The notes under the pieces were generated by a model. The model saw nothing but the letters and a program-made list of their open reading frames with translations. It was not told the DNA's origin and made no database searches. This document shows, one piece after another, positions 7,792 to 52,427 of a DNA stretch of 64,000 nucleotides (its first letter is position 1; each line of letters begins with the position of its first letter). Source of the DNA: Candidatus Binatia bacterium (GTDB taxonomy: Bacteria; Desulfobacterota; Binatia; UBA9968; JAJDTQ01); the NCBI GenBank assembly GCA_963664535.1, contig OY761465.1, positions 841,350 to 905,349 of the forward strand, in the 5' to 3' direction. The position numbers and the translations under genes were made by a program.

Positions 7792-8238
7792 ATGCGCAAA
7801 TCATCTTGGCTGTTGGTCCTGTTGGCGGGGATATTCTTGATGACGGGTGCGGGTGCGGCTTGGGCACAGCAGTTCGACAAGGTCATCGCGGAACGCCAGG
7901 AACTGATGAAGGGCATCGGCGGGGCGAGCAAGGCCCTGCGTTCCGCCGCCGACGCGGCGGCGGTGGCTGCCAGCGCCGACAAGCTGGTGGCGGCCTTTGC
8001 CAAGATCAACGCCGACACCTTTCCCAAGGGAAGCGCCGACGGCTCGCGGTCCAAGCCGGAGATTTGGGAGCAGTGGGACGATTTCACGAAGGCGGCCAAG
8101 AACGCCGTGACCCTGGCCCAGGCCATCGCCACCAAGGCCCGGGCCGGCGAGAACACCGCCGAACTCGTCAAGGCCTTCGGCAGGAACGCCTGCGGAAGCT
8201 GTCACCGGCCGTTCCGGAAACCCAAGAAGCGGAGTTGA
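7792..8238 (+). CDS. class II cytochrome c (cytochrome c-prime/c556-like), secreted
   Basis: RBS GAGGAGG; signal peptide; four-helix-bundle-like composition; C-terminal CGSCH haem motif. Confidence 0.7.
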   Translation: MRKSSWLLVLLAGIFLMTGAGAAWAQQFDKVIAERQELMKGIGGASKALRSAADAAAVAASADKLVAAFAKINADTFPKGSADGSRSKPEIWEQWDDFTKAAKNAVTLAQAIATKARAGENTAELVKAFGRNACGSCHRPFRKPKKRS

Positions 8239-8255
8239 GCCCACCCGCCGCCCGC

Positions 8256-8531
8256 ATGATTACGCAACACGTCGGGGAAGCGGCCCTGCCGGACATCGAG
8301 GCATGGGCCAACGCCATCATCCGCTCGGAGGACGACACCGTGAAAGCGGTGGAGTCCTATCACGACGCGGACTCCAACACCTACGTCATCCGCCTGACCC
8401 GGGACGCCCGGGTGCTGCTCTTCCGGCTCTCGGAAGCGCAAGTGCACACCCCGGAACGCGAACCCGAGTGCGAGAAGACCCTCCGGAACAGAGTGAAGGA
8501 AGTACGCCGGTTGCTGGGACGGATGGCATGA
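8256..8531 (+). CDS. hypothetical protein (91 aa)
   Basis: ATG at 8256 in the frame of ORF 7806-8531; protein-like composition; no recognisable family. Confidence 0.35.
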   Translation: MITQHVGEAALPDIEAWANAIIRSEDDTVKAVESYHDADSNTYVIRLTRDARVLLFRLSEAQVHTPEREPECEKTLRNRVKEVRRLLGRMA

Positions 8532-8550
8532 GCCGCCCGGATTTCGCGCG

Positions 8551-9519
8551 CTACAGTCCGGCCGCCATCTCTTTCGCGAAGTAGGTGAGAATCAGGTCGG
8601 CGCCGGCCCGCTTGATGGACAGCAGGACCTCCGGGACCACGGTGCTCTCGTCGATCCAGCCGTTCTGGGCCGCGGCCTTGATCATGGCGTATTCGCCGCT
8701 CACATTGTAGGCGGCGGTGGGATGATTGAAGCGCTGTTTCACACGCGAGATGACGTCCAGGTACGACAGCGCCGGCTTCACCATCACGATGTCGGCGCCC
8801 TCGGCGATATCCGCCTCCACCTCCCGCAGCGCCTCGTCGCTGTTGCCCGGGTCCATCTGATAGGAACGCCGGTCGCCGAACTGCGGGGTCGATTCCGCGG
8901 CCTCGCGGAAAGGCCCGTAGAAACCCGACGCATACTTGGCGGCGTAGGCCATGATGACCACGTTCTCCAGACCATCTCCGTCCAGCGCGGCGCGAACCGC
9001 CCCCACCCGGCCGTCCATCATGTCGGAAGGAGCGACGACATCGGCCCCGGCGCGGGCGTGGGACAGGGCTTCCTTCGCCAGCAGCTCCAGGGAGGCGTCG
9101 TTGGCCACCTCTCCGTCCTCGATGATGCCGCAGTGGCCGTGGTCGGTGTACTCGCACAGGCAGACGTCGGTGATCACCAACAGGTCCGGGACCCTGTCCT
9201 TGATGGCCCGGACCGCTTCCTGTACCACGCCGTTCTCGGCGTAGGCTTCCGAGCCCACGGCGTCCTTGGTCTCGGGGATTCCGAAGAGGATCACGCCGGG
9301 AATGCCCAGATGCCATACGGTCTCGGCCTCGCCGGCGGCCCGGTCCGCCGAAAGCTGGGCGACGCCGGGCATGGAAGTCACCGGTTGCACCCGGTCGCGC
9401 CCCGGGCACACGAACAACGGGTAGATGAAGTCCCGCGGACTCAGAGCGGTCTCGCGCACCAAGTCGCGCAAAAGGCCGGTCCGCCGAAGTCTTCGCGGTC
9501 GGGTGACGGGAAATGCCAT
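8551..9519 (-). CDS. hemB: porphobilinogen synthase (delta-aminolevulinate dehydratase)
   Basis: full-length 322 aa with active-site lysines in [12 protein letters not shown] and SGEYAM; typical HemB N-terminus RPRRLR. Confidence 0.92.
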
Positions 9520-18194: not shown

Positions 18195-18830
18195 CTATTC
18201 GAACTCGTAGGGTATTTGCGTCGGCCCGTATCCCTGCCAGTACTTGCAGGTCTCGGGGTCGTAGCGGCCCTGGAGGAAGCCGCCGGGCTTCTCGGCGCGC
18301 ACGATGATCGCCACGGTGCGATCCTCCCCGCTCTGCTCCGCGTGAATCTGCCACGGGCGCACCAAGTCGATCTTGCCGGGCTCCACCTGAGCGTTCTCGG
18401 TCTTGCGGACCTCGGCGTAGTCCGGCTTGGAGCCGTCGTCCAGCCGTTCGTAGCGCTCGATGGTCTCGCGGCCGTCCAGCACCCCGTACAGCGTCCAGTT
18501 GTGGGTGTGGTCGTGAATGCTGGTGCGGGTCCCCGGCGCCTTCACCAGCCCGTTGATGACGAATCCGTGGTCCGGATCCTCGTAGAGGAGGAGGTTCTGC
18601 GCCCGCTGGCCGCCCTCGGCCGCGGACAGCCCGCCCTGATCGCAGTCGGGCCACTGCTCGGACTGTGCCTTTACGCCGGGATCCGACAGCAACTCGCTCA
18701 GCAGCGATCCCATCTCCTGCCAGCGTTTGTCCACGTCCGGCTCGTCCGCGTGCAATTGCCGGATAGCCGCGATGAATCGCTTGGCGGCCGACGGCTCGTT
18801 TTCCTGGTTGGGCATGGGACGTGCGCTCAT
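18195..18830 (-). CDS. cysteine-dioxygenase-like cupin (CDO type I family)
   Basis: start at MSARPMP preceded by GGGAGGAG; metal-binding motif SIHDHTHNWTLYGVL. Confidence 0.65.
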   Translation of the reverse strand: MSARPMPNQENEPSAAKRFIAAIRQLHADEPDVDKRWQEMGSLLSELLSDPGVKAQSEQWPDCDQGGLSAAEGGQRAQNLLLYEDPDHGFVINGLVKAPGTRTSIHDHTHNWTLYGVLDGRETIERYERLDDGSKPDYAEVRKTENAQVEPGKIDLVRPWQIHAEQSGEDRTVAIIVRAEKPGGFLQGRYDPETCKYWQGYGPTQIPYEFE

Positions 18831-18960
18831 GGTGTCTCCTCCCTTTAGCTGTGACCGGTGGCCCAATCAGTCGAAAGTATCCGAGGAACAGATGTCGTGT
18901 CAACCTACACAGCGCGCTGATTTGGCTGGAAGTAGCCCTATTTGTGAGCTGGCGAGACGG

Positions 18961-19191
18961 TCAAGCCACCGCAACGAGCCGAATTACGTCTTCAAATTCG
19001 CGCACCGAACCGCCGCTTCGCCGTTCGTAACGGTCGACCTTAAAGTTCTGTGCAAGTATATCCGCGATTGCAAGCGCACAGTTGTCGTCGTCCACAAGCG
19101 GAAGCGCTTTGATTTCTCCAAGAGAAATCTCACCGCGATTAAGCAGCAGAGCAGCTGCAAGGCGTGCGGGGACCGCCGAATAGTTGAGCAT
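18961..19191 (-). CDS. small hypothetical protein (76 aa); second gene of the low-GC protease cassette
   Basis: ATG at 19191 preceded by GAGGAGG and separated by 1 nt from the upstream stop; ~50% GC against ~68% in flanks; no family recognised. Confidence 0.45.
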   Translation of the reverse strand: MLNYSAVPARLAAALLLNRGEISLGEIKALPLVDDDNCALAIADILAQNFKVDRYERRSGGSVREFEDVIRLVAVA

Positions 19192-19192
19192 T

Positions 19193-20140
19193 TCACGCCT
19201 CCTCACTATGCCGAGCATCTCTATTTTCGGGGTCGTTTCCGACTACCCCCGGCGGCATCGTTTTCAATAGCTCAGGGGGCAATCCTTTCAATTGCTCCCT
19301 CATCTTCGCTTGCTCCTGCTTTCGAATCAAGTCGTCTCTCTCCCTATTGAGTCCATGAATTTTCCACACTATATCTAAGGCTTCTTCCTCGATTTCATGT
19401 GCCTCCAACCCCAACTCTTGGACCTCACCGATTGTGATGCACCAACTATGATCAGCATACCCGGTCGTCAATAGTTCTCCAATACTCTTTGCACGCTCCC
19501 CTTCTCCTTTCAGCATCCTCGAAGACAGGAGCTTTTCAACGTACTCTCTCCCTACATCGAGCGACTTCTTGAAACTCCCGAGAGTCAGTGGAAACTGCAA
19601 CCTTTGCATGAGGCCCTCGGCCAGCTGAGAATTCCCGTTGGCAAACTCTTCCCGAATAAGTTGCAGGGTTGACTCTATGTGGAGAGGAGAGAACCGTTCT
19701 ACTCGCTGTTCTAAGGGGTTCATCTCTGTGATCTGTGGGTCCAACGGCCCTAGTTCTGCCACAGGTGTCATTAGGATCTCGTCACCAGCACAAATCAAGA
19801 GCGTCGCTGCACTTTTCGCCCATCGTGGGATGATGAAAGTGAGCTTCTCATTTCCGTAACGGCGAAACAGGAGAGCAAGGTTATACGCCGCATCAATATC
19901 TCCTCCACCAGAATCGATGACCACATCCAAAGACTTCCCACTATACTTTCCTGCCCTTAAGTCATCATAAACCCTATCAACCAGGGTATTCCGTATATTG
20001 GCCTCTCCGAGTAACAACGGAAAACACTCTGCGCCACGAATCGCGGCAAGCTCTTTGCAAACGCCATCGATTTCCTTGTCAATGGAAGAAATTGTTCTTC
20101 TTGATCTTGCGCGCGCCATCCTATCCTTCTTCCTAACCAC
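19193..20140 (-). CDS. ClpP/crotonase-fold serine protease of the S49/SDH (serine dehydrogenase proteinase) family
   Basis: IDSGGGDIDAAYNLALLF and WAKSAATLLICAGDEILMTP align to the ClpP/SppA core (nucleophilic Ser in AKSAAT); helical C-terminal extension; low GC. Confidence 0.6.
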   Translation of the reverse strand: MVRKKDRMARARSRRTISSIDKEIDGVCKELAAIRGAECFPLLLGEANIRNTLVDRVYDDLRAGKYSGKSLDVVIDSGGGDIDAAYNLALLFRRYGNEKLTFIIPRWAKSAATLLICAGDEILMTPVAELGPLDPQITEMNPLEQRVERFSPLHIESTLQLIREEFANGNSQLAEGLMQRLQFPLTLGSFKKSLDVGREYVEKLLSSRMLKGEGERAKSIGELLTTGYADHSWCITIGEVQELGLEAHEIEEEALDIVWKIHGLNRERDDLIRKQEQAKMREQLKGLPPELLKTMPPGVVGNDPENRDARHSEEA

Positions 20141-20239
20141 GAAGTTGTTCTCGAAAAAGACGATTACGCGGTTTCTTTCTCGAAATCAACTCTCCCATGT
20201 CCGTGGCGGGCGTCCGCTGTATGTGTGACCGCGACTCCT

Positions 20240-21160
20240 TTAGTCAACGCCCTTGACCAGCTGCACCCGGCTGGTGTCGCGCAGCTTGTCGAACCGCTCT
20301 CGCTCCACCTCGAAGTAGTGGGGTTGCGCGGAACTCTTGAGGATATAGTAATCGCCCTCTTTCGGGGATACCACCGTGTGGGTGATGGTGGATCCCGTCT
20401 TCGTCTCGATGCTGTACTCGAGGATGGGCCTTCCGCCGTCGAAACGCGTCTTCCCGTCCACTGAGAGAACCTCCTTGAAGCCTACCCTCGCCACGCGCTC
20501 CACGAGATCCTTCACCGGCCCCGCGTCGGTTTCTTCGTCCTCCCGCAGCCCCTCCACCTCGAACCCGCCGTCGCCGGCCTTCAACGCGTAGGACCCCAGG
20601 TCGATGCGGACGATGTCCTCCGCCGCCGTCTTGAGCAGCTCGGTATCGTACCACTGTCCCGCCTCCGCCGGAGCGTCGAAAGCGTTGAAGTCGATGGCGT
20701 AGGTGTGGTCGTCGCCGTCGAGACGGGCATGGACCCTGCGGAACCCGGGCGATGAGCCGAGGAAGACGTCGCCCAGCACCTCCGTCCCCTGGAGGAACCG
20801 CACCCGCCGTTCGAAACGGACCGGCGTCACCTTGAACTGCCTGGCCGCCACCAGGGTCTTGCCCACGGGCCAGGAGCGTTTGGCGTCGAGGAGCTTGTCC
20901 GCGAACTTCTCGAACCTGGCCGGCGACACCGGGAAGTCGCCCTTGTCGGCCAGCACCCAGCCGCCGTCCTTGCGGGCGAGGCGCAGCGTCGGCTTGTCCT
21001 GCCGCTCGATGGTCACCGTGTCCATGCTGCCGCGGTCCACGGTCAGAAGCGGCTTGTCCGCCTCCAAGGCGCCGGTGTCGTCGCTCGGGAGGTTGACCCA
21101 CACCACCAGACCGGCCTGGAGGACCAGCAACGACAGCAAGAGCTTGATCGATCGGCTCAC
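20240..21160 (-). CDS. DUF4340 domain protein (periplasmic accessory component of GldG-type ABC-2 systems)
   Basis: signal/anchor sequence; sits directly downstream of the GldF/GldG-like gene in the usual order. Confidence 0.6.
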   Translation of the reverse strand: MSRSIKLLLSLLVLQAGLVVWVNLPSDDTGALEADKPLLTVDRGSMDTVTIERQDKPTLRLARKDGGWVLADKGDFPVSPARFEKFADKLLDAKRSWPVGKTLVAARQFKVTPVRFERRVRFLQGTEVLGDVFLGSSPGFRRVHARLDGDDHTYAIDFNAFDAPAEAGQWYDTELLKTAAEDIVRIDLGSYALKAGDGGFEVEGLREDEETDAGPVKDLVERVARVGFKEVLSVDGKTRFDGGRPILEYSIETKTGSTITHTVVSPKEGDYYILKSSAQPHYFEVERERFDKLRDTSRVQLVKGVD

Positions 21161-25277: not shown

Positions 25278-27155
25278 TCATCGCGGTGGTTCACGTGTGA
25301 ACGGACGATAATCCACCAACGCGGACTGACCGATAATGTCAATAATGGTCACAGACAGCTCCGAGCCCGCGGCGTCCGTGAGCTTGATGGACTTGCCCAG
25401 CCGAAAATGCACTGGCTGCTGTCGACCGTCCTCTATGGCGATATTGTCCGCATACAGATAAGTCCGATCGAAGGCATCGCGTATGGGATTGAGGCGTCCG
25501 CGCAGGCCGGGGAGATGTCCGATGGCCTGAGGGAATATGGCGGCACCTCCGGCAGAAAGGCGATTGAGCTCGATCAAAAGACCTCCGCGGCTGGGCAACC
25601 ACTCTCTTTTCAGCCCTCCACCATACCCAGGTGCCGCAGCATAAACGGTCATCGGAAGATGCGTTGTGTATAGATCGAGAGATGCTTCGCCAGCCTCGTC
25701 GGTCGTTGCGCGTTGCCAGGTCTTGTTCGGAAAGAGCGCCAATACATCGACTCCCGACAGAGCTTCTCCTTTGGAATGCACCGTTACTGTCGAGGCGGCG
25801 GGACTCAATTCGAGTTTCGCAGCAGGAATGCTCAGTGCGACGTTGGACTGGTCAACGACCTTGTATTGTGGCAGGTTGCCAGTGGCTGCTTGGGTTTCCG
25901 TCTTGATTATGGATACGCCGTCCCCTCGGCGTTCCATCAAGTATCGACGATGGCTCGACCCTGGGACATCTCCGACGGGAATTCGTCCAAACACGGAGGC
26001 GATCACTTCGTTGCGCGTTGCCTGGCTTGTGTCCATGCCTTCAATGGTCATCCCATTGGGAAGCTGACCGGGCGAGTCAATCTCAAGACGCCCCATGAAC
26101 ATTGACAATCGGATACGGCGGGAAGACATGGAGTAATCACGGTGCGCAACGGCGTTTACCACCGCTTCGAACACGGCTGCAACGCTGTATTGTGCCACAT
26201 CCTCCCGCTCCGGTAACTTGCGCGCCGCGACCCGCATGTTGCGTACGACGAACTTCACCGCGTCAGCGATCTGCAAAGGTAGTGGACCGACAATTTCCTG
26301 TGCGTCCAGTTGACCGGAGGCGCGATCCTTTCCGCGATAGTGCGTGGCTAAAATCGTGGCTTGTGGCAACCACCTATGTGGCGACTGGCTACAAAGCAGC
26401 ACCCCTGCAACTGTCGCGCGATCCACACCCGCTTCATCCTCGCCCAGGAGCCTGAGATTCATCAATGCCCTGCGAGGATCATCCGCTCCAGCCACGCTGA
26501 GCAGCGGCTCCCACAGCCGCTCGCTGAGCGTCTCGAAGCCCGTATTGGGCACGATTTGTTTATCGAACCACAGATAACGGCTTTGTGCGCGGTTCTGCGT
26601 CAGCCTTAGACGCTCTTCGCTGTCCATTTGTCGCTTGGTCGCCCCAACGCGGATGAACGCGCGCCCATCCCGTTCGTGAACGGTGTTGCCCCGCGGCACT
26701 TCGACGAGAACAAACGCTTCTCCGTCAAGTTCCCGGTGATGAACGTCGATTCGCAGCGCAGGCTTCACCGCATCTGTGCTTACTTCAACCAGCAGGCGAT
26801 CAACTGAGGCCATCTGTTCCGGTGACATGCCCTGAATGCGCCCATCGTCCGAAACGCCGCAAAGAAGTGTGCCTCCGCTTGCATTCGCGAAGGCCGCCAT
26901 TTCATCCGCTAGATCATCCCGTCGGGGACTAGTGAGCTGATTCCCATTGAACTCCATCTGCTTGAATTCCCAGGCGCTGTCCTCGCTCAGACGCAGCCGC
27001 TGCCGTATTTCGGCGTCGCTTACGGCCATCATTCGCTCCCGAGATTCCTTGGTGGCCCGTACCGAGTAGGGCTCACCGACATCGTAAACGACCTTTCTTG
27101 CGCAATTGTCATCGGTGTCCGTGTCCAATGACGCCGAACTCGCTGTCCGTCTCAT
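25278..27155 (-). CDS. Schlafen/AlbA_2 domain plus HATPase_c_4 ATPase protein (RecG-C-terminal-like putative DNA-binding/defence-associated protein) with a ~230-aa uncharacterised C-terminal extension
   Basis: N-terminal SEDSAWEFKQMEF... (AlbA_2 core); central VAAVFEAVVNAVAHRDY...GRLEIDSPGQLP (HATPase_c_4); ~56% GC. Confidence 0.65.
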   Translation of the reverse strand: MRRTASSASLDTDTDDNCARKVVYDVGEPYSVRATKESRERMMAVSDAEIRQRLRLSEDSAWEFKQMEFNGNQLTSPRRDDLADEMAAFANASGGTLLCGVSDDGRIQGMSPEQMASVDRLLVEVSTDAVKPALRIDVHHRELDGEAFVLVEVPRGNTVHERDGRAFIRVGATKRQMDSEERLRLTQNRAQSRYLWFDKQIVPNTGFETLSERLWEPLLSVAGADDPRRALMNLRLLGEDEAGVDRATVAGVLLCSQSPHRWLPQATILATHYRGKDRASGQLDAQEIVGPLPLQIADAVKFVVRNMRVAARKLPEREDVAQYSVAAVFEAVVNAVAHRDYSMSSRRIRLSMFMGRLEIDSPGQLPNGMTIEGMDTSQATRNEVIASVFGRIPVGDVPGSSHRRYLMERRGDGVSIIKTETQAATGNLPQYKVVDQSNVALSIPAAKLELSPAASTVTVHSKGEALSGVDVLALFPNKTWQRATTDEAGEASLDLYTTHLPMTVYAAAPGYGGGLKREWLPSRGGLLIELNRLSAGGAAIFPQAIGHLPGLRGRLNPIRDAFDRTYLYADNIAIEDGRQQPVHFRLGKSIKLTDAAGSELSVTIIDIIGQSALVDYRPFTREPPR

Positions 27156-50949: not shown

Positions 50950-51367
50950 GCCTGTTCTTCCTCCCGATTGCGAAACTTGCTCAATTGCCTTCCCGGCCGG
51001 CGGCTGGGGATCCTCCCCCCGTAGGTCGGGTTAGCCGAAGGCGTAACCCGACAGGACATGGCAGTCCTGCGCCGGATTACACTCCGCTGATGCGACCTGC
51101 CTGGGACGGGAACCGTAGGGTGAAATGATCCCGGAACTTTGCCGCAGCCGGGTTGACGGCACTGAGGATATTAGCTAGCGCGTCTGGTCCGTGGATTCAA
51201 GGGATTGGGCAACAGCCGCCATGAGAGAAAACCTGGGAGCCTGGGACGGCATCGGGCTGAGCCAGATCCCGGACGTCGGCCAAGGACTTGCCATGACGAC
51301 CCTCGTTGCGCCCGAGGCTCGCTTAATTTCTCCTGGCCCTCATGATACTCTGTCTTCGGAGGTTCCC

Positions 51368-51568
51368 ATGACTACCATCACCATTACCCTTCCTGAAGAG
51401 CGTCTCGCCAAATTGCAAGAGATCGCTACCCGCTTTCATGTGAATACGGAAGATCTGGTACGGGTCGGCATCGAAGAACTCCTCACTCGCCCGGAAACCG
51501 ACGTCTTCCGCAGTGCAGTTACCGATACCTTGAAGAAGAATGCTGAGTTGTACAGACGTTTAGCCTAG
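51368..51568 (+). CDS. RHH (CopG/Arc-like) antitoxin of a Phd-Doc-type pair
   Basis: RBS GGAGG; 66 aa; 1-nt overlap with the doc start. Confidence 0.55.
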   Translation: MTTITITLPEERLAKLQEIATRFHVNTEDLVRVGIEELLTRPETDVFRSAVTDTLKKNAELYRRLA

Positions 51569-51972
51569 TGCATTCTCTAACGCTCAACGACGTACTGGAA
51601 TTGCACCGCCAAGTTGGAGCCCAGTCTGGCGGCGCAGTGGGAGTGCTTAGCTTGCCGGCTTTGGAATCCGCTCTTGCACAACCATGGATGACGTTCGCCG
51701 GAGCGGACCTGTATCCGACTCTGGTAGAGAAGGCTGCTGTGCTCGGCTACTCCTTGATCAGCAATCATCCATTCATCGACGGCAACAAACGTACCGGGCA
51801 TGCGGCGATGGAAGTGTTCCTGATGTTGAATGGTTGCGAGATCCACTCATCGGTAGACGAGCAAGAGCGAATCATTCTTGAGGTGGCGTCCGGGGCGATC
51901 GACCGAAAACAGTTTTCCGACTGGCTTCGTGCCCATGTCATGGAAAGAGAAGCGCGGAAGCGGAACCGCTAG
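51568..51972 (+). CDS. doc: Doc (death-on-curing) toxin, Fic family
   Basis: Fic motif HPFIDGNKRTGH; GTG start overlapping the antitoxin stop. Confidence 0.8.
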   Translation: MHSLTLNDVLELHRQVGAQSGGAVGVLSLPALESALAQPWMTFAGADLYPTLVEKAAVLGYSLISNHPFIDGNKRTGHAAMEVFLMLNGCEIHSSVDEQERIILEVASGAIDRKQFSDWLRAHVMEREARKRNR

Positions 51973-52031: not shown

Positions 52032-52427
52032 CTATGGCCACACTCGTCGAACGTACGGACGAAAATCGTATCCGGTCCCCCCGCTTTTTACGTCTTGCAA
52101 GTATCGCTCCGTGGCACAAGATATTTCAAAATCAATCAGCCCTTCGTCCTGCCTCAATCTAAAGGTTCTTTCAGGATTCCGGATCGAGTTTGCTTCAATC
52201 GTCAACCAAACCAAGCCGGCGTTCCCCGCACACAGCAAGTTCAACTCCTGCTCGAATTTTTTCGGAGGAACGTTGAACCACCATACCTCCTTAGCTGAGT
52301 TAATGTTCGAAAAATGTGTATTGGTCCTGTCTAGAGCGTCATGCTGTAGGTACGAGTTCACTCGCTTTATGGCCGAATCTTTTCCATTGAATTGGCTTCC
52401 TTCGCCGTGCGGGGCTTCCTGCGGCAA
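52032..52427 (-). CDS. hypothetical protein (131 aa), low-GC orphan
   Basis: ~48% GC; coherent protein-like composition; no family recognised. Confidence 0.4.
   Translation of the reverse strand: MPQEAPHGEGSQFNGKDSAIKRVNSYLQHDALDRTNTHFSNINSAKEVWWFNVPPKKFEQELNLLCAGNAGLVWLTIEANSIRNPERTFRLRQDEGLIDFEISCATERYLQDVKSGGTGYDFRPYVRRVWP

Follow-up and report, generated by a model that had tools for sequence, protein, structure and literature searches.

Results

We examined a 64,000-nt stretch of a Candidatus Binatia genome (contig OY761465.1, positions 841,350 to 905,349 of the forward strand; hereafter, the window) that carries a cassette of two co-oriented minus-strand genes, one encoding a ClpP-fold serine protease of the SDH family and the other a 76-residue partner. 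The adjoining genes were identified with Pfam as a cupin (a weak match to CDO_I), a DUF4340 protein, and an ABC-2 permease. A composition scan gave a guanine-cytosine (GC) content of 0.47–0.55 across positions 18800–20300 and of 0.65–0.69 in both flanks, and the block from 19 to 20 kb is the lowest-GC kilobase in the entire window. The insert itself averages ∼0.51, compared with ∼0.66 outside it. The low-GC wedge between the cupin and DUF4340/ABC-2 genes that a preliminary description of the sequence had pointed out is thus present, although the limits it had been given (18870–20239) are corrected to 18904–20239 by alignment with relatives lacking the insert. The ATG of the partner lies 1 nt past the TGA stop of the protease, and this spacing and the partner's GAGGAGG ribosome-binding site are both as previously claimed. 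The 315-residue protease open reading frame (ORF) running from a GTG at 20140 also exists as described, but the likelier start is an ATG at 20119, which is preceded by an AAGGA box, is the start of the public gene call (P0001), and would yield 308 residues.

The two genes are conserved as a unit. A distribution scan restricted to one genome per species found 80 loci, and with a profile of the small protein, a partner homologue was detected directly downstream of the protease gene, on the same strand, in 48 of the 55 close loci that could be assessed. The proposal of a conserved, co-transcribed pair therefore withstands comparison of gene neighborhoods, with the small ORF kept next to homologous proteases. 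The same profile matched none of 24 loci of distant SDH proteases (∼30% identity); one locus (L049) has a sub-threshold copy of the partner, and another (L040) a truncated copy. The gap between stop and start has a median of 9 nt, 13 of 45 junctions overlap, and at most loci a similar purine-rich site precedes the partner start; the partner gene would often be translationally coupled to the protease gene. Compared with a related pair (L001), the ratio of nonsynonymous to synonymous substitution rates (dN/dS) was 0.057 in the protease gene and 0.053 in the partner gene, indicating strong purifying selection on both. Because these ratios are ∼0.05 and homologues are many (652 matches for the protease and 168 cluster representatives for the small protein), the ORFs did not arise by chance. 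Pairwise distance matrices of protease and partner are correlated (r = 0.72, Mantel p≤5e-4, n = 43), with the partner changing faster than the protease.

The 168 members of the small-protein family, found by an exhaustive profile search over 1.84 billion cluster representatives, are nearly all 70–130 residues long. Three are proteins of 419–475 residues in which the partner domain forms the C-terminus of an SDH protease (P0280, P0303, and P0311), and P0082 is a fourth fusion of the same kind. Such fusions occur in at least three or four lineages, and the one in P0280 reads as an unbroken ORF in a soil assembly built from short reads. Gene fusion is a classical sign of two proteins that act together physically.

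Empty sites were sought by scanning metagenome contigs with the adjacent cupin protein. One relative (L083, LXNJ01004689.1) encodes ABC-2, cupin, and amidohydrolase proteins ∼98% identical to those of the window, and the scan yielded four more (L084–L087) at 88–89% identity. In all five, the TTGACA of the cupin promoter comes within ∼5 nt after the DUF4340 stop codon, and the protease and small gene are absent. Window and L083 nucleotide sequences are 95–100% identical on both sides of the site, except in the last ∼300 bp of DUF4340 (70–82%) and in ∼90 bp before the ribosome-binding site of the cupin (68%). We therefore conclude that the cassette came in with a recombination tract of ∼1.7 kb from a diverged donor already carrying it at the same site; it is a strain-variable insertion that arrived by recombination. 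A second lineage has the same polymorphism, with L001 filled and L086 and L087 empty. Synonymous divergence between the cassettes of the window and L001 (positions 8001–9187 of the latter) is 1.6–1.8, roughly threefold the value in the adjacent cupin and DUF4340 genes (0.47–0.58), either because the alleles are older than the split of their hosts or because very different third-position GC and base composition bias the estimate. The earlier claim that the low-GC island was horizontally acquired is thus borne out, and the empty sites make the case stronger. A search for flanking repeats or a target-site duplication gave only trivial ones, namely a GTTGAC microhomology of 6–7 nt shared by the two junctions and chance families of 10–18 nt, and no integrase, tRNA, or Rfam element was found with the cassette. 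The LXNJ and MKWU sequences come from metagenomes of Petrosia ficiformis and Aplysina aerophoba, respectively (PMC5099237); as both are sponge metagenomes, we conclude that the host is a marine sponge symbiont.

At 54 of 57 loci the GC content of the pair is below that of its surroundings, typically by ∼0.10. Protease relatives at 45–80% identity occur in Binatia, Spirochaetia, Gammaproteobacteria (Azotimanducaceae and Arenicellales), several classes of Chloroflexota, Poribacteria, Nitrospirales, Acidobacteriota, Planctomycetota, Cloacimonadota, and Thermodesulfobacteriota and, among archaea, in Hadarchaeota, Methanosarcina, Heimdall-, Woese-, and Altiarchaeota. Only frequent horizontal transfer can account for this breadth. 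Conservation, selection, fusions, and empty sites firmly establish a mobile two-gene cassette. In bacterial and archaeal phyla alike, its two genes have been passed on, moved, and kept under selection together, and they are sometimes fused. Two genomes carry two copies far apart (L022 and L053 in Caldilineaceae OZ251482.1; L045 and L057 in the metagenome-assembled genome (MAG) CAR2_bin_8); in such genomes one copy is often fragmented, which may reflect pseudogenization or indel errors in long-read assemblies.

The protease matches Pfam family PF01972 (SDH_protease) with an E-value of 1.9e-16 and 60.4 bits (gathering cut-off, 31.3), over residues 68–140 only, corresponding to positions 91–162 of the 286-position profile; NfeD1b_N and CLP_protease match more weakly. 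Against the NCBIfam equivalog NF047768 (Clp_like_SDH) it scores 65.4 bits, far under the cut-off of 250, and it therefore represents a divergent subfamily rather than the equivalog. An AlphaFold2 (AF2) model with a mean predicted local distance difference test (pLDDT) score of 78.7 has a ClpP/SppA-like alpha/beta core, as expected of MEROPS clan SK, in which a helical insert of ∼90 residues takes the place of the ClpP handle, and ends in a long C-terminal helix; its best Foldseek matches in the PDB are ClpP and SppA (E-values 3e-6 to 1e-5, probability 1.0, template modeling score to the target 0.5–0.6). Among protease relatives detectable by sequence, no structure has been solved. After the long helix comes a motif, LKxLPPxLL (residues ∼282–291, window ∼19271–19297), that is nearly invariant in the subfamily, is kept in the fusions, and may be a docking site.

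Three residues, numbered here from the GTG start, form the predicted catalytic triad. In an alignment of 58 close and 24 distant sequences (82 in all, counted where a column was covered), Ser110 is a serine in 55 of 55 close and 24 of 24 distant proteases, Asp134 an aspartate in 57 of 57 and 24 of 24, and His231 a histidine in 55 of 55 and 24 of 24; H154 and H262 are not conserved. The ORF contains WAKSAATLLICAGDE and IDSGGGDID, and Ser110 aligns with the catalytic serine of the NfeD 1510-N protease. The order Ser-Asp-His is the origin of the SDH family name; judging by motif spacing, Asp134 would occupy the position of the ClpP histidine and His231 that of the ClpP aspartate. With these residues invariant, the ClpP/SppA-like core is indeed intact, as had been reported, and the protease is apparently enzymatically active. 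No signal peptide or membrane segment was seen on reading its sequence, and the enzyme is probably cytoplasmic. No gene for a partner AAA+ unfoldase was found with it.

Searches of Pfam, NCBIfam, PHROGs, and PADLOC returned no match to the small protein, so the statement that it could not be placed in a family still stands, but its fold is assignable by structure search. All top Foldseek matches in the PDB to its AF2 model (pLDDT 83.5; topology H-b-H-H-b-b) are winged-helix proteins (TFE/TFIIE-alpha, ArsR, MarR, ROK, Stf76, and AspA), with probabilities of ∼1.0 and E-values of only ∼1e-2. The partner is thus predicted to be a family-less, acidic winged helix: the median isoelectric point of its family is 5.35, 31 of 42 members carry a net negative charge, and the third helix, the putative recognition helix, is hydrophobic and acidic, the sole strongly conserved basic residue being R10. 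Because of this acidity and the character of the third helix, we think that the binding target of the partner is a protein and not DNA.

The winged helix of three Arenicellales genomes and of P0180 continues at its C-terminus into a FitA-like ribbon-helix-helix (RHH) domain and/or a VapB-type toxin-binding tail, with a PIN toxin gene directly after it; in this Arenicellales lineage the partner has become part of an antitoxin. The three arrangements, all in MAGs, differ. In L007 (8079–9802) protease, winged helix, and RHH domain lie within a single 454-residue ORF; in L051 (8892–9772) the protease is in three fragments, and the antitoxin-like fusion and the PIN (VapC) gene are intact; and in L011 (8983–9777) the winged helix takes the N-terminal place of the RHH domain in a VapB-like antitoxin that precedes a PIN toxin.

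When the neighbors of the 80 loci were clustered, none but the partner was retained. The commonest among the 148 nearest flanking proteins are N6_N4 DNA methylases (5), DDE transposases (4), and PIN toxins (2), and the next 148 genes outward include 2 methylases, 2 PIN toxins, and 1 IS66 transposase, the rest being housekeeping genes; these are raw counts without a background control. According to PADLOC, the flanking methylases belong to restriction-modification systems of type II or III. Sporadic neighbors were an upstream ORF of 70–88 residues in 4 loci (cluster 10) and IS1-like transposases by distant SDH genes (cluster 11). We also noted hemD (uroporphyrinogen-III synthase, HEM4) 3–8 kb downstream of the pair in three unrelated lineages (L001, L004, L024, L036, and L042); by a rough multiple-testing estimate chance suffices to explain it, and it was rejected. 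No phage gene, including those for capsid, portal, and terminase, was seen near any of >50 loci, and no close relative was found in 50,697 phage records (INPHARED, tblastn) or in 2.9 million viral contigs (IMG/VR). Plasmids gave distant matches only, among them a small Klebsiella ColE1-type plasmid with a lone SDH-like gene.

Family PF01972 as a whole is spread over bacteria, archaea, prophages, and giant viruses, and a literature search found neither a paper on its function nor a solved structure. The canonical "SDH family Clp fold serine proteinase" is annotated in 28 of 5,426 complete E. coli genomes. In all four E. coli prophages inspected, the SDH gene lies directly after a cI/LexA-family repressor and before N, and a Proteus prophage (L130, 5809–6777) has the same cI-SDH layout. 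The slot after cI and before N is the position of rexAB in lambda; like the places of the SDH gene in the two phages that follow, it is a classical one for exclusion genes expressed by lysogens. In a P2-like Burkholderia phage the SDH gene adjoins the integrase. In Klebsiella phage ST13-OXA48phi12.4, an SDH-type "SppA" gene adjoins an ImmA/Xre pair, and its start is overlapped by a hypothetical gene for 71 residues; the phage protease can be aligned with that of the window from the core through the helical insert to the His motif (23% identity, E-value 6e-11), whereas the two small partners are not homologous (hhalign probability 0.1%). The best matches to the protease in a library of viral structures (BFVD) are giant-virus SDH proteinases, with head-maturation proteases ranking far below. 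Proteins under the annotation "serine dehydrogenase proteinase" are numerous in giant viruses (Marseillevirus, Hyperionvirus, Edafosvirus, Klosneuvirus, and others), where a genome has several such paralogues.

Coordinates are collected in Table 1. A cupin promoter-like site, TTGACA-16-GATACT, lies at 18903..18876, and its TTGACA...GGATAC is kept in both filled and empty sites. The two copies of TTTCGAGAA that lie upstream in the window have no conserved counterpart in L001. The sole 8-mer shared among upstream regions was GAGTTGAT, present in 3 of 11, and no conserved operator or motif common to the cassettes was found.

Two other islets of low GC content were seen in the window. One, at 51191–51972 on the plus strand (GC 0.57–0.59), encodes an RHH protein (weak match to PF01402) and, directly after it, a Fic/Doc toxin (PF02661, 8e-19, with HPFIDGNKRTG), which together look like a Phd/Doc-type toxin-antitoxin pair; beside it is an orphan 131-residue ORF on the minus strand (52032–52427) without a family match. 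The other, at 25278–27155 on the minus strand (GC ∼0.58), encodes a 625-residue protein with Schlafen AlbA_2 and HATPase_c_4 domains just upstream of an ABC transporter operon and looks like another acquired accessory gene.

Table 1. Positions of the cassette, its parts, and related features (window coordinates unless another locus is named).
Feature	Position	Strand	Basis
Inserted low-GC cassette, 1,336 bp	18904..20239	.	Bounded by DUF4340 stop codon on one side and -35 box of cupin promoter on the other; empty-site relatives L083 and L086
SDH-type ClpP-fold serine protease, coding sequence (315 aa from GTG at 20140; stop codon 19193-19195)	19193..20140	-	ORF list, PF01972, AF2 model
Winged-helix partner (predicted fold), 76 aa, coding sequence (stop codon 18961-18963)	18961..19191	-	Homologue adjacency, AF2 model, dN/dS, public gene call P0320
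Partner ribosome-binding site, GAGGAGG	19198..19204	-	Read from sequence; 6 nt upstream of partner ATG, within 3' end of protease coding sequence
Codon of predicted nucleophile Ser110 (AGT, in RWAKSAAT)	19811..19813	-	Conservation; alignment to NfeD 1510-N
Codon of predicted triad residue Asp134 (GAC, in GPLDPQI)	19739..19741	-	Conservation
Codon of predicted triad residue His231 (CAT, in YADHSW)	19448..19450	-	Conservation
DUF4340 3' end, one arm of recombination tract, arrived with cassette	20244..20600	-	Identity to L083 only 70-82%
Cupin 5' untranslated and promoter region, other arm of tract	18830..18918	-	68% identity to L083, 97-100% downstream
E. coli prophage SDH gene, L131	6889-7893		
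E. coli prophage SDH gene, L132	6868-7872		
E. coli prophage SDH genes, L134 and L135	2389-3393		

Discussion

Our results describe a small mobile unit with an apparently intact protease, and a role in defence or of a toxin-antitoxin (TA)-like kind is plausible. The reading that we tentatively favor, while regarding it as possible rather than probable, is that the cassette is a conflict module, whether of the abortive-infection, exclusion, or TA-like type, with a latent protease under the gating or direction of the partner. The winged helix would bind the protease, serving as its inhibitor, sensor, or adaptor and not as a repressor of the classical DNA-binding sort, and the protease would be a latent effector that is freed or targeted once an invader protein engages the partner or the partner is displaced or degraded. 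Such a module would be retained by protecting its host, or itself, in the phage-rich microbiomes of sponges. We arrive at this reading because of the mobility signature, because members of the wider family sit in the exclusion-gene slots of prophages and a named defence system is based on an SDH protease, because the partner has been recruited into a VapB-PIN module, and because ietAS provides a precedent for a serine-protease toxin (PMC13069673). The methylases, transposases, and PIN toxins that flank some copies, and the Doc pair and Schlafen-like gene in the other low-GC islets of the window, were counted in its favor, and a type II TA system has the same layout of neighboring genes that are transcribed together, mobile, and patchy in distribution.

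A number of observations weigh against this interpretation. Four relatives (L028, L048, L052, and L054) have an intact protease and no detectable partner ORF, whereas a type II toxin should never be found without its antitoxin; together with the partnerless SDH proteases of E. coli prophages, these lone enzymes indicate that the protease is not an obligatory poison requiring this antidote. The binding of partner to protease is a prediction from the fusions and the co-divergence of the two proteins. The precedent in the Klebsiella phage covers the protease alone, since the small partners are not homologous. The 148 nearest flanking proteins fall into 130 Pfam families, mostly housekeeping, so the link to mobilome and defence genes is real but modest. 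No sigma-70-like site was found upstream of the protease, leaving the cassette without a recognizable promoter of its own. Finally, the preliminary description had likened the layout to a TA or anti-phage module, and a comparison of both proteins with PADLOC-DB 2.0 returned no defence-model match, with 0 families for protease or partner at E-values up to 1. The partner has the winged-helix fold that a DNA-binding type II antitoxin might have, yet it is acidic and no operator was detected.

A more ambitious form of the conflict-module reading, which we consider rather doubtful, is that the cassette represents a new protease-based class of immune or addiction system. A winged-helix sensor-inhibitor would keep the ClpP-fold protease latent until an invader protein, or loss of the cassette, frees it and the cell is killed or arrested; the two-gene unit would spread between bacteria and archaea, notably in sponge microbiomes, and in some lineages would be wired to VapBC as a trigger that destroys the antitoxin.

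A protease fused to or beside a (winged) helix-turn-helix domain is the layout of LexA/CI and ImmA/ImmR, and the pair might likewise be a protease-regulator switch (ImmA/ImmR, CapP/CapH, or LexA-like), a possibility that we judge unlikely. The winged helix would here be a DNA-binding regulator, or the DNA-binding or dimerization module of an antitoxin, with the SDH protease as its signal-activated protease, and cleavage would derepress or release the cassette itself, the fused antitoxin tail and PIN toxin, or genes in trans. The best structural neighbors of the partner are indeed DNA-binding winged-helix regulators (MarR, ArsR, ROK, AspA, and Stf76), the domain occurs in the VapB-like antitoxin of L011 and is fused to a FitA-like RHH domain in L007, L051, and P0180, and its wing contains some Arg and Lys. 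However, the structural matches have weak E-values (∼1e-2), the partners are mostly acidic, and the putative recognition helix offers no conserved basic or polar surface. Nor do the cassettes share the conserved operator or upstream motif that a regulator would be expected to need, or a conserved neighbor that could be regulated, the flanks being unrelated at almost every locus. Still less probable, in our view, is a role in niche-adaptive accessory proteolysis, in which a substrate-specific cytoplasmic protease and its adaptor (in the manner of ClpS/ClpAP) would be exchanged among sponge symbionts and degrade host-derived, foreign, or damaged proteins without any part in conflict or addiction. 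Strong purifying selection on both genes, an intact triad, largely housekeeping neighborhoods, the viability of lone proteases, and the apparent sponge association of the host lineage and many carriers would all fit such a role. It is harder to reconcile with an extremely patchy distribution that includes presence/absence polymorphism inside one species-level lineage, with persistently low GC content in a unit of just two genes found repeatedly by methylases, transposases, and PIN toxins, or with the presence of the wider family in the exclusion-gene slots of prophages, which is a signature of conflict genes rather than of metabolic helpers.

The pair could in principle be a decayed remnant of phage head morphogenesis, with a ClpP/S49-type prohead protease whose helical C-terminus is a scaffold and a small gene left over from decoration or scaffolding. 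Weak PHROG matches to head maturation proteases (2e-8 and 6e-8) cover the catalytic core only, and the long C-terminal helix is the other feature in its favor; the best PHROG match, at 4.7e-32, is a family of unknown function and no head protease, and in the viral structure library head proteases stand far under the giant-virus SDH proteinases. The absence of capsid, portal, and terminase genes by >50 loci and of relatives in INPHARED and IMG/VR, the strong purifying selection on both genes, their presence in archaea as well as bacteria, and an insert of exactly two genes with clean empty sites make this origin extremely improbable, and context, selection, and empty sites effectively refute it. 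The argument made earlier against a prohead-protease remnant holds across the >50 loci, in none of which is the pair embedded in a head-morphogenesis module.

The cassette offers a clean entry to the function of PF01972, being a minimal unit of two genes with filled and empty alleles in near-identical genomes. It further provides natural fusions that point to a protein-protein complex, a predicted triad that can be mutated, and a natural three-gene, PIN-linked derivative. Should it prove to be a defence or addiction module, a ClpP-fold effector would join the short list of ietAS, Lit, CHAT/caspase-like proteases, and the Lon-like BrxL, and there would be a testable model for the SDH proteases in the rex-like slots of prophages. 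The very wide transfer of so small a cassette, across phyla and domains among uncultured and partly sponge-associated microbes, is documented here. We regard it as an experimentally tractable candidate rather than as a surprise in kind.

Both the protease family and the idea of a two-gene defence system based on an SDH protease are already known. The name of one such system, FS_HP_SDH_sah, contains SDH_sah, the earlier Pfam name of PF01972, and the system reportedly comes from a 2022 study by Fillol-Salom and colleagues (Cell 185:3248) of immune systems in phage-inducible chromosomal islands (PICIs). DefenseFinder lists it as a two-gene system (name in PMC13532340), and the reference Fillol-Salom et al. 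2022 appears in PMC11364771. Like the cassette, it pairs a protease of the PF01972 family with a small hypothetical protein in two genes on mobile DNA. In its probable example, that of Klebsiella phage ST13-OXA48phi12.4, the small partner lies upstream and is not homologous to the winged helix of the window, and the subfamily described here is absent from the collections of phages and viral contigs and resides in chromosomes of uncultured bacteria and archaea rather than in PICIs or prophages. The paper on the Tai system involves no SDH proteases. The earlier suggestion that the pair is not a described system therefore needs qualification: a system using the same Pfam family has been named, whereas in searchable sources the subfamily, its winged-helix partner (168 clusters, unannotated), the fusions, the VapBC-linked derivative, and the spread across domains are undescribed.

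The NF047768 proteases of prophages share with the window protease the invariant Ser, Asp, His, GGG, E, and Q motifs and an accessory, mobile nature, but they are only ∼23–30% identical to it, are prophage-borne, lack a winged-helix partner, and in E. coli appear to be single genes. The ietAS system combines a serine-protease toxin with an AAA-ATPase antitoxin, stabilizes plasmids, and is also anti-phage (PMC13069673). It resembles our reading of the cassette in being a two-gene mobile module whose serine protease is a harmful effector restrained by its partner, features that are those of ietAS itself; ietS, however, is subtilisin-like and not ClpP-fold, its partner is an ATPase and not a winged helix, and there is no sequence relationship. 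ImmA/IrrE-Xre (COG2856), CapP/CapH, and LexA/CI likewise combine a protease with a small (winged) helix-turn-helix protein, either as neighboring genes or in one chain, in mobile or defence DNA, and offer a plausible parallel for a protease that acts on its own partner. Their proteases are Zn-metallopeptidases or S24 Ser-Lys peptidases, unlike the ClpP-fold SDH serine enzyme of the window, which is not a Zn-metallopeptidase with HEXXH like those of COG2856, so that the resemblance is one of layout only; and their partners are basic and recognize specific DNA sequences at known operators, whereas ours is acidic and has no detectable operator. ClpP, SppA, and NfeD 1510-N, self-compartmentalizing serine peptidases of the ClpP/crotonase fold, share the core fold with the window protease, with the nucleophilic serine and the glycine-rich oxyanion loop in equivalent positions. 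They differ from it in catalytic residues, the predicted Ser-Asp-His triad of the window protease contrasting with Ser-His-Asp in ClpP and with the Ser-Lys dyad of SppA and NfeD, and ClpP differs further in having a handle where the window protease is modeled with a ∼90-residue helical insert and in working with an AAA+ unfoldase, for which the cassette carries no gene.

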